From assembly GCA_944366945.1 (NCBI GenBank), contig CALVWJ010000002.1:43912-107911 (forward strand): a stretch of 64,000 bases of DNA, written 5' to 3'. This DNA comes from an uncultured Clostridia bacterium (GTDB taxonomy: Bacteria; Bacillota; Clostridia; Christensenellales; CAG-138). The notes beneath the pieces are model-generated. The model made no database searches. It was not told the origin of the DNA and worked only from the letters and a program-made list of their open reading frames with translations. Positions within the stretch are counted from its first letter, which is position 1. The number at the start of each line of letters is the position of its first letter. Shown here piece after piece: positions 42,291-44,298 of this stretch. The position numbers and the translations under genes were made by a program.

Positions 42291-42510
42291 ACTGCTCGCC
42301 TCCCATCCTAAATATTTCTTTAATGAGTAAAACGCATGCATTCCCCAAAAAGTTCCCGCCAAAACGTTGGAGCCCAAACCATCTCAAAACGTTGAATGAT
42401 TTTTAAGGTAAGCACAGAGCTTTGCATTTTCACTCTCCATATACCAAGCAAGCGCAAGGCGCAATCCATGATATCTTTCTTCATCGGCTATTATGGCTAG
42501 GCTGCAATAC

Positions 42511-42536
42511 AAAAAAAGCTCCGGTATACCGGAGCT
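42511..42536 (-). terminator. intrinsic terminator downstream of the zinc-ribbon gene
   Basis: The stem is AGCTCCGG/CCGGAGCT with loop TATA, followed by TTTTTTT on the minus strand. Confidence 0.85.
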
Positions 42537-42635
42537 TTCTGCCTGTTCTAATACCGTTTTGCCGCTTCACGCGGAACAAAGGGGATTAGCCCCAAGCACG
42601 GGGGGCGCTATGCCCTGTTGCAAGCGCGTTTGCCT

Positions 42636-42908
42636 TTAGCCTCTGCGGCTCTGGAAGCAGGCGCTGCAGTAAATGGGCCTGTCGTTCTTGGGAACGAACG
42701 GGATCTTGGTGGGCGCGCCGCACTGTGCGCAAACCGCATCATACATTTCGCGGTCATTTGAGCGCTGGCTCTTGCGGGCGTTCCGGCACGCTTTGCAACG
42801 GATGGGCTCGTTCTGGAAGCCTTTCTCAGCATAGAATTCCTGTTCGCCTGCGGTGAAAACGAATTCTGCGCCGCAATCCTTGCATACCAATGTCTTGTCC
42901 TGGAACAT
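42636..42908 (-). CDS. double CxxC zinc-ribbon protein (CxxC-x17-CxxC type), 90 aa
   Basis: The sequence is MFQDKTLVCKDCGAEFVFTAGEQEFYAEKGFQNEPIRCKACRNARK...AVCAQCGAPTKIPFVPKNDRPIYCSAC. AAGGGGA lies 10 nt upstream. The longer track ORF reaching 43082 reads through the leader. Confidence 0.85.
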   Translation of the reverse strand: MFQDKTLVCKDCGAEFVFTAGEQEFYAEKGFQNEPIRCKACRNARKSQRSNDREMYDAVCAQCGAPTKIPFVPKNDRPIYCSACFQSRRG

Positions 42909-43165
42909 GTGTCTGTTATCCCCTTGTAAAATTATTTTTGTTATGCCAAATTTCGGCTGACCTGGTCTTTGACCCCACACCCGCCAGCTGGAAGGTTCGC
43001 TCCTAGGCATATGCCCCCCACTACTGCTCCTCTCGGGGCATATACCCCGGCTGGGCTTACCTCTAAGCCGCACCATGCTCACGGGGCTTTTCCCCGCTTA
43101 CGTGGATCGTTTTGCCTGCGACTGGCATCGACTTGCAACCACAGACCCGAAACTTTGGATAACTT
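42909..43165 (-). ncRNA. unclassified structured leader/ncRNA upstream of the zinc-ribbon gene
   Basis: There is no credible ORF. A 16-bp closing helix pairs TTATCCAAAGTTTCGG with CCGAAATTTGGCATAA. Internal GC-rich hairpins include CGGGG-AAAAG-CCCCG, GGCTTA-GAGG-TAAGCC and a 12-bp stem GGTATATGCCCC/GGGGGCATATGCC. It has its own promoter, and there is an upstream terminator. Confidence 0.55.
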
Positions 43166-43170
43166 TTATT

Positions 43171-43199
43171 ATTATAATGGATTCCCTATAGAAACGCAA
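43171..43199 (-). promoter_or_regulatory. sigma-A-type promoter for the structured leader
   Basis: The minus strand reads TTGCGT, a 17-nt spacer, then TATAAT. Confidence 0.6.
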
Positions 43200-43210
43200 T
43201 GGTTTTTCGG

Positions 43211-43246
43211 AAAAAAGAGCGGCCATTTTCACGATCCGCTCTTTTT
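43211..43246 (-). terminator. intrinsic terminator downstream of the TIGR01440-like gene
   Basis: The stem is AGAGCGG/CCGCTCT, with T-runs on both strands. Confidence 0.7.
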
Positions 43247-43298
43247 CGCTTAAATAATTTATTGCGTTTTGACCTGCGCATCAAAGGGCGCCGCCTGC

Positions 43299-43874
43299 TT
43301 AGGCTTTGGGTTTTGGCATTTCATCATATTGTGCGCGAGGGCCGCCTACATATTTGGGACGCGTGCGGGCCATAGAAAGATTTGCCTCGCCAATTTTCCG
43401 TGTTTTAGCATGCACGGGAACAACTACTGGATGCAGATGCATGCCGATAAACGTGCCGCCGATATCCATGCCCGCACAAGCGCGGCCATGCAAGTCTTCC
43501 ACCATCACAGGATCCTCGAAGCGAGCAACCGCTTCCATAGAAAATGCGCCACCAGCATGAAGCTGCGGCTTCACCCATACCTGCTGAAGATCAAATTTCT
43601 CCATGCAACCGCGTTCCACTACAAGACAACGGTTCAAATGCTCGCAGCATTGCGCCGCAAGAAAGAGCCCGCGTTCCCGCACACGTGGCAAAATCGCATC
43701 CATGATTGCCTTTGCAGCATCCACGTTTGATCCTGTTCCAATCATCTTCCCCATAACTTCACTGGTAGAGCAGCCAACAACGAAAATATCTCCTGCATGC
43801 AGCGTATCTGCCGCCGCAAACAGCTCGTCCAGTGCAGCGTTTGCCTGCGCGTTGATCGTTTCAAATAGTCCCAT
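43299..43874 (-). CDS. UPF0340/TIGR01440 (YwlG-like) family protein
   Basis: It contains MGLFETIN...VVGCSTSEV.G..IG, AAQCCEHLNRCLVVER and GMDIGGTFIGMH. GAGGTGG precedes the ATG at 43872-43874. Confidence 0.85.
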   Translation of the reverse strand: MGLFETINAQANAALDELFAAADTLHAGDIFVVGCSTSEVMGKMIGTGSNVDAAKAIMDAILPRVRERGLFLAAQCCEHLNRCLVVERGCMEKFDLQQVWVKPQLHAGGAFSMEAVARFEDPVMVEDLHGRACAGMDIGGTFIGMHLHPVVVPVHAKTRKIGEANLSMARTRPKYVGGPRAQYDEMPKPKA

Positions 43875-44298
43875 GCTATCCACCTCGTTCAAGCGGCACA
43901 TCCTGCCGCAATTTCCCTATTATTATATGCTTACTGCAGCCTGCTTGCAAGGGGCTGCAACCATAACGGCATGCATCTTCATCTAATGCATGTGCTTCAA
44001 TTCTACGTTAACACATATAGCTCAAAAGCAAGATTGCATTTGAAAAGGCGCAAACAGCTGATTGGATTTGCGCTATATTCATTGTGTCTTATTTTAAATC
44101 AGCAGGTTCTAGCGGATTCTATCCCCAGCAACACGGAGCATAGCGACTAAGTCCTGTATGTAATGCATTCTTTTATAATTCTCCCGTGCCAGCCAACGTG
44201 TTATTCTCGAATCAGCATTAAACCAGGATTCTGATATTGTGCCCATTTATCGGAGCCGCGCAGCCGCATTAGCATGTCTCCTGCCGCTTCAATTCAAG

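Follow-up and report, generated by a model that had tools for sequence, protein, structure and literature searches.

The window, a stretch of 64,000 nucleotides, carries a compact unit on its minus strand in which an RNA gene with its own predicted promoter is followed, after a short spacer, by the gene for a small zinc-ribbon protein. The RNA gene belongs to an uncultured chicken-gut member of the Acutalibacteraceae (the host family below), and the source DNA is present in chicken-gut metagenomes. The features of the locus, in the order in which the minus strand is read, are as follows.

43299..43901, minus strand: upstream gene of the DUF436/TIGR01440 family, 200 aa (Pfam PF04260, 2.8e-69; NCBIfam TIGR01440)
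43211..43246, minus strand: intrinsic terminator of the upstream gene, a hairpin of -19.7 kcal/mol followed by U6 (z = -4.1)
43171..43199, minus strand: predicted sigma-A-type promoter (TTGCGT 43199-43194, 17 nt, TATAAT 43176-43171)
42940..43163, minus strand: raiA motif RNA (ModT), RF03072 core 43155-42948 plus P1a, about 224 nt
42909..42939, minus strand: A/U-rich unstructured spacer of 31 nt, with the Shine-Dalgarno (SD) sequence AAGGGGA at 42925-42919 (MFE 0 kcal/mol)
42636..42908, minus strand: 90-aa zinc-ribbon (zf) gene, zf_Tbcl + zf_Tbcl_2 (PF13451, PF23477, TIGR04272)
42541..42635, minus strand: 3' UTR of the zinc-ribbon gene, 95 nt, folding no better than shuffled sequence (z = -0.12)
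42513..42540, minus strand: intrinsic terminator ending the unit, a 12-bp stem followed by a U-run (-19.0 kcal/mol, z = -4.9)

As read from its sequence, the element ahead of the zinc-ribbon gene is a full-length, ordinary copy of the known raiA-motif (ModT) RNA, and the class is not new. The Rfam scan gave a match to RF03072 at 43155-42948 on the minus strand, which covered the entire model (positions 1-209) with 205.5 bits against a gathering score of 101.3 (E = 6e-53). RF03072 was the sole significant Rfam family between 42500 and 43300, even at E ≤ 10. A preliminary description of this DNA, made by eye, had correctly located a structured RNA here, and the 262-nt stretch folds with an MFE of -95.2 kcal/mol (z = -3.39). 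The same description had placed the element outside the known RNA classes, which the match contradicts; the Rfam scan that it had itself proposed returned a known class. It had also seen a loose likeness to the ydaO (c-di-AMP) riboswitch. The two are alike as large multi-stem RNAs of Bacillota 5' regions, but the fold is different, and no covariance-model match to ydaO/yuaA was found at E ≤ 10 in 42500-43300. The host genome (2.40 Mb, 42 contigs, 94% complete) has one copy of the RNA. In the host-family sample of 121 genomes, 100 have one copy each (78 of the 84 high-quality genomes; 43 of the 50 genera).

The Rfam fold was analysed in an alignment of 46 relatives. Over the 63 modelled pairs, 83.7% of the cells were paired across the 46 sequences. 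Changes on both sides were seen in 33 pairs, a level matched by none of 500 shuffles, and pairing fell to 33-48% in controls with slid partners; only the helix at columns 68-81 had poor support on the MAFFT alignment. The stems are therefore backed by compensatory change. The covariation check, also proposed in the preliminary description, in this way supported the Rfam fold and left two internal helices drawn by eye without conservation. The first of these, a 12-bp stem with a 17-nt loop, was paired in 53.5% of the cells against 51.2% in shuffles and showed no excess covariation in the 46 relatives. A stem of 12-13 bp with the 17-nt loop is the MFE solution for the window sequence alone and is peculiar to it; in the same place the consensus has two small covarying local hairpins (helices 7 and 10). 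In the second, GCCAG/CTGGC, two of the five pairs fail, in 39 and 18 of the 46 relatives, and a rival partner of the CTGGC strand covaries: this is CCAGC at 43054-43050 (helix 6), which is 100% paired with three double-change pairs.

The closing helix that had been counted as 16 bp is real and is kept in the relatives, but it consists of 15 pairs with two 1-nt bulges. This helix, P1a, joins 43163-43146 with 42955-42940 and lengthens the Rfam P1 by 8 nt per side (43163-43156 with 42947-42940). The extension is maintained in the relatives despite quite different sequence at each locus: the flanks of the same locus form a duplex of -12.0 kcal/mol on average (mean 11.6 pairs), compared with -6.1 kcal/mol for flanks taken from different loci. 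An extension that is kept while its sequence varies agrees with the published P1a, whose length is conserved and whose sequence is variable (PMC12968392). The GU and GGU bulges of P1 are present (GGG-GU-CUGUGG and ACCA-GGU-CAGCC), and so is the conserved single-stranded linker, UUAGA(C/A)GUAA, which reads UUAGAGGUAA in the window (consensus UUAGAnGUAA) and varies at its sixth base only among the 46 relatives.

The promoter TTGCGT-17-TATAAT reads as the preliminary description had it. The -35 hexamer matches TTGACA at 3 of 6 positions, and for this reason the promoter was not listed by the consensus scan. In all of the 97 host-family loci with enough upstream sequence, a -10 box lies 16-24 nt ahead of the conserved GGGU; TATAAT is found in 86, TTG at -35 in 89 and a 17-nt promoter spacer in 75 of them. 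Transcription is predicted to begin near 43165-43163, where P1a has its base. The strong terminator claimed upstream, at 43246-43211, was borne out by its folding energy as listed above, while the terminator scan misses it, its outer loop being longer than 8 nt; judged from position and fold, it shields the raiA promoter from read-through. The DUF436 gene stands outside the raiA-zf unit and, in a tblastn comparison of 30 related loci, preceded the RNA in no more than 18.

Downstream of the RNA, no terminator, no promoter and no hairpin masking the SD sequence was found in the spacer (42909..42939), in accord with the earlier statement that no terminator separates the RNA from the coding sequence. 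The motif ACAAGGGGA of the spacer region is conserved in relatives. The region had also been called free of ORFs; mechanical ORFs do overlap it, and none of them is conserved. One such ORF of 148 aa (GTG start, 42636-43082, minus strand) is in frame with zf and takes in half of the RNA ahead of it, and gene callers could annotate an over-long protein from it. The conserved start of the zf gene is the ATG at 42908, with MF[QE]DK in all orthologues.

There is good evidence that the raiA RNA and the zinc-ribbon gene form one transcription unit. Contigs of eight out of eight chicken-gut or faecal metatranscriptomes map on 42541-43150, and the RNA-gene junction is crossed by contigs in six of them: X26 (42687-43127), X27 (42760-43127), X25 (42899-43127), X31 (42687-42985), X30 (42543-42980) and X34 (42541-43088, with 0 differences). 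The 3' UTR (42541..42635) is covered by X34 record 15 and X30 record 1. Coverage is zero over 42400-42510 in all eight runs and above 43177 in seven, and the flanking genes are almost uncovered. Metatranscriptomes can carry DNA; an origin of these contigs from DNA is argued against by the confinement of the coverage to the unit. Two RNA contigs end right ahead of the terminator 42540-42513, at 42541 and 42543. These are assembled contigs only, which break at segments conserved between species (43127, 42985, 42956), and their breaks and depth are no guide to RNA ends, isoform ratio or expression level.

The zinc-ribbon protein belongs to the zf_Tbcl/CxxC-x17-CxxC small proteins, with which it shares the domain signatures and four CxxC pairs in two modules. 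It matched PF13451 (zf_Tbcl) with 94.1 bits (4.7e-27), PF23477 (zf_Tbcl_2) with 71.2 bits (5.5e-20) and the NCBIfam model TIGR04272 (CxxC-x17-CxxC) with 67.6 bits, in each case passing the domain cut-off. The cysteines C9, C12, C38, C41, C60, C63, C81 and C84 are invariant in 15 orthologues, and the gene is single-copy in the host genome. The AF2 model (pLDDT 85) has two strand-strand-helix zinc modules. Zinc binding was shown for archaeal members of the zf_Tbcl small proteins (PMC12704099). The homologues from Methanosarcina mazei (PMC12704099) have no raiA RNA nearby, unlike the gene described here.

Weinberg 2017 (PMC5737381) presented the raiA motif RNAs, with reservations, as candidate cis-regulators and obtained no small-molecule binding in vitro. 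In C. acetobutylicum, where the raiA RNA is among the most abundant RNAs of the cell, its deletion impaired sporulation and aggregation, and a plasmid copy rescued the defect (Soares 2024, PMC10861870). In C. difficile, the RNA was renamed ModT; its abundance and stability are like those of rRNA, it acts in trans, and it affects the stationary-phase transition and sporulation via c-di-GMP levels (Lence 2024, PMC11706538). A conserved core and P1 were defined by cryo-EM, and the affinity of KhpA-KhpB for the RNA is micromolar (He 2026, PMC12968392). Because trans action, phenotypes and KhpA-KhpB binding have been published for raiA/ModT, the class label of RF03072 in Rfam, 'Cis-reg; riboswitch', is outdated, and the present copy is not to be counted as a new riboswitch. 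A gene of the KhpB type (Jag_N) was found in the host genome.

The copy in the window shares with the published raiA/ModT RNAs the full-length model match, the conserved core, the GU and GGU bulges, the linker and the long P1a, as well as the single copy, the sigma-A promoter of its own and a Bacillota host. The setting is different. Of the loci in the literature, 74% have comFC upstream and 66% have raiA/hpf downstream, whereas here DUF436 lies upstream and zf_Tbcl downstream; the comFC/hpf synteny, frequent and not defining for the class, is thus not found at this locus. The hpf/raiA protein gene of the host (L111, G000:C17:37265-37534; 224 aa, S30AE plus C-terminal domain) is on another contig, where it adjoins feoB and a class II aldolase gene, and no raiA RNA is nearby. 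Since hpf sits apart and without the RNA, the synteny that gave the motif its name is absent in the host lineage. The published survey of raiA loci stresses gaps of hundreds of nucleotides and variable orientation, while here no terminator follows the RNA and transcription reads through into the zf gene about 40 nt downstream. The ModT isoforms of C. difficile, a short one and a read-through long one, ModT(L) (PMC11706538), offer a partial parallel. As in ModT(L), the transcript passes the conserved 3' end of P1 and reaches a downstream intrinsic terminator; the extension of ModT(L) is a short tail that codes for no protein and includes a terminator stem, whereas here it comprises a 90-aa coding sequence and a 95-nt 3' UTR. 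The locus therefore shows a familiar RNA family in an operon setting that has been little described.

The best explanation of the whole, to which we assign a probability of about 0.9, is a raiA/ModT RNA gene that is read through into the zf gene and whose RNA acts in trans, by homology. The sigma-A-type promoter at 43199-43171 would start transcription at the foot of P1a, and the RNA of about 224 nt (43163-42940) matches the conserved raiA architecture. Transcription runs on past the RNA, through the 31-nt spacer and into the zf gene, and stops at 42540-42513. Lacking a separate promoter, the zf gene would depend on that of raiA for its expression, and its mRNA would begin with the folded RNA. 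A short raiA RNA, if it is a separate species, could arise by 3' processing, or the read-through transcript could be a long isoform like ModT(L). By analogy with C. acetobutylicum and Clostridioides difficile, the RNA may be abundant and stable, probably associated with protein (KhpA/KhpB), may act in trans and influence the switch from growth to stationary phase or sporulation, and would not be a ligand-sensing switch for the zf gene. Abundance, stability and trans action are carried over to the host RNA from these two distant Clostridia.

What ties the two genes together is a separate question, and we give about even odds to mere promoter sharing, in which the zf gene has come to lie behind a strong, growth-phase-regulated promoter, the stable 5' structure guards its mRNA and no functional tie exists between the RNA and the protein. 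Structures at the 5' end are known to stabilise mRNAs in B. subtilis and other Bacillota. The lack of a promoter in the 31-nt spacer fits such a reading, and the zf gene is common without raiA, where it stands behind sigH, ruvB or a phosphoglucomutase gene. In the class sample, which consisted of 200 Clostridia genomes with raiA above the cut-off in 34, a full-length zf orthologue was present in 95: in 19 of the 34 raiA-positive and in 76 of the 166 raiA-negative genomes. No phyletic association between raiA and zf was thus detected in these 200 genomes (odds ratio 1.5, p = 0.35). Fifteen raiA-positive genomes (of f40, f41, f28, f5 and others) have no full-length zf, and in family f31 both genes are present and not adjacent. 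The identity to the query zf protein was 69-78% for raiA-linked and up to 79% for unlinked copies. By similarity, the linked copies are not a distinct subgroup. Near-universal retention in 43 genera and five families with changing flanks suggests more than an accident and counts against chance promoter sharing, yet selection for co-expression only is still compatible with it. Shared-promoter co-expression, with the RNA possibly stabilising the 5' end of the mRNA, is more economical than a specific partnership.

A specific functional pair, in which the protein binds, processes or chaperones the RNA or both serve one transition-phase pathway and co-transcription has been selected, is in our view unlikely. 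The argument for it comes from the spread of the arrangement. Of the host-family sample, 99 raiA loci were fetched and 98 were assessable (one ends at a contig edge); in 96 of the 98, from 43 genera, the RNA is followed on its own strand by the zf gene at a distance of 30-52 nt, and in two the gene is absent. The link persists while the upstream neighbour varies, as described above for DUF436. Outside the host family, the zf gene was downstream in 12 of the 32 assessable raiA loci of the class sample, which are all those sampled from families f11, f37, f56 and f61; no raiA locus of f40, f31, f41, f28, f65, f63, f4 or f5 in this 200-genome sample has it there. Of the 19 genomes that carry both genes, 13 have them side by side. 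From the protein side, raiA is directly upstream in 29 of the closest 80 zf loci of public genomes, Christensenellales and rumen Clostridia among them; 20 zf loci without an nhmmer match to raiA had no Rfam raiA either, and only two tRNA matches were obtained from them.

The other recurrent place of the zf gene adds to this argument. In 13 of 49 raiA-less zf loci, a sigma-factor gene lies 67-164 nt upstream on the same strand, which is the largest cluster of upstream genes. Four of these sigma factors were tested; two passed the NCBIfam SigH cut-offs (L060:1698-2336 and L069:290-997), and those of L077 and L083 were SigH-like below the cut-off. SigH governs the transition from growth to sporulation in Bacillota. 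As this is the transition that ModT mutants disturb, the linkage of zf to sigH falls within the same physiological theme as the ModT phenotypes, and a role of the zf protein in a shared switch is suggested by the position directly behind sigH.

Synteny yielded no candidate protein partner in Soares 2024 (PMC10861870). No paper with both 'raiA motif' and 'zinc' was found in the searchable literature, and 'zinc' is absent from the texts of Soares 2024 and Lence 2024; the zf gene may still occur below the 10% display threshold in the gene-association supplements to Weinberg 2017 and Soares 2024. The operon-like coupling of raiA and zf is therefore unmentioned in searchable papers, supplementary synteny tables aside. 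Against the pair stand the lack of phyletic correlation, linked zf proteins that are no closer to the query than unlinked ones, and the genomes given above in which zf is missing or apart. In C. acetobutylicum and C. difficile other genes lie downstream of the RNA (PMC10861870, PMC11706538). The protein model adds no hint of function, a fold search against the PDB having returned no informative neighbour (best E = 0.15).

In its fullest form the proposal would make raiA and zf_Tbcl a selected two-gene module of the Acutalibacteraceae and at least four further families of Clostridia, transcribed from a single promoter to a single terminator without a regulatory element in between; the protein would act on the RNA or together with it, or would take part in the same growth-to-stationary-phase or sporulation switch. 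We hold this to be improbable; if true, it would be the first genetic handle on the partner or pathway of an abundant RNA without a known biochemical function. The raiA/ModT RNAs are among the most widespread and abundant bacterial RNAs lacking a biochemical function, and published synteny gave no partner. A near-invariant, promoter-sharing link across a family of gut Clostridia, together with the link to sigH, is a cheap and testable lead. It is tempered by the missing phyletic correlation, and a specific RNA-protein partnership is only a lead because zf is no more frequent in genomes with raiA than in those without.

A cis-acting riboswitch or leader, which would sense a ligand or signal and control translation or transcription of the zf gene, is very improbable: the RNA does immediately precede the gene within one transcript, it is filed in Rfam as cis-regulatory, and the MFE fold pairs the leader GUUAUCC (43163-43157) with GGAUAAC (42921-42915) beside the SD sequence, but no expression platform was found in the unstructured, terminator-free spacer, the leader serves P1a in all relatives, the same RNA stands before unrelated genes or none in most families (PMC10861870), it was complemented in trans in two species (PMC10861870, PMC11706538), and it bound no small molecule in vitro. 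The pairing of leader and SD sequence is not conserved within the genus: loci L002, L005 and L026 have GGAUAUC instead and have lost it. Of the two possibilities in the preliminary description, that of a stable ncRNA sharing a transcript with the gene is in keeping with the metatranscriptome contigs and the published trans action, and for that of a riboswitch or leader no expression platform was found. Its observation is thus partly confirmed and its interpretation partly supported, and the raiA/ModT RNA gene read through into zf is the reading that we retain.

Several minor observations were made in the course of the survey. In the window, the only further Rfam match was a T-box leader (RF00230, 28630-28835, minus strand) with 100.4 bits against a gathering score of 93. 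Upstream of the raiA-less zf orthologue of L076, at a distance of about 30 nt, a weak match to the tRNA model was found (L076:2406-2469, 37.8 bits). The spacer between raiA and zf is about 108-118 nt in the f11 loci L190, L199, L200, L203, L205 and L207, compared with about 40 nt here, which would leave room for a further element, for example a hairpin or a terminator. Two loci filed as Alloprevotella sp. and Bacteroidaceae bacterium (L044 and L045) bear a typical Clostridia raiA-zf unit. To our knowledge, raiA RNA has been reported from Bacillota and Actinomycetota only, and these labels are therefore probably a result of mis-binning. Longer raiA RNAs occur in some genera, with 275-295 nt (for example G044:C33:8638-8924 and G003:C12:162823-163115), and in the f56 loci L208-L210, with about 335 nt. 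Compared with the 208-nt form here, they contain an extra 70-130 nt, inserted presumably by enlargement of a peripheral stem; these RNAs still score 160-180 bits, and the zf gene remains downstream.
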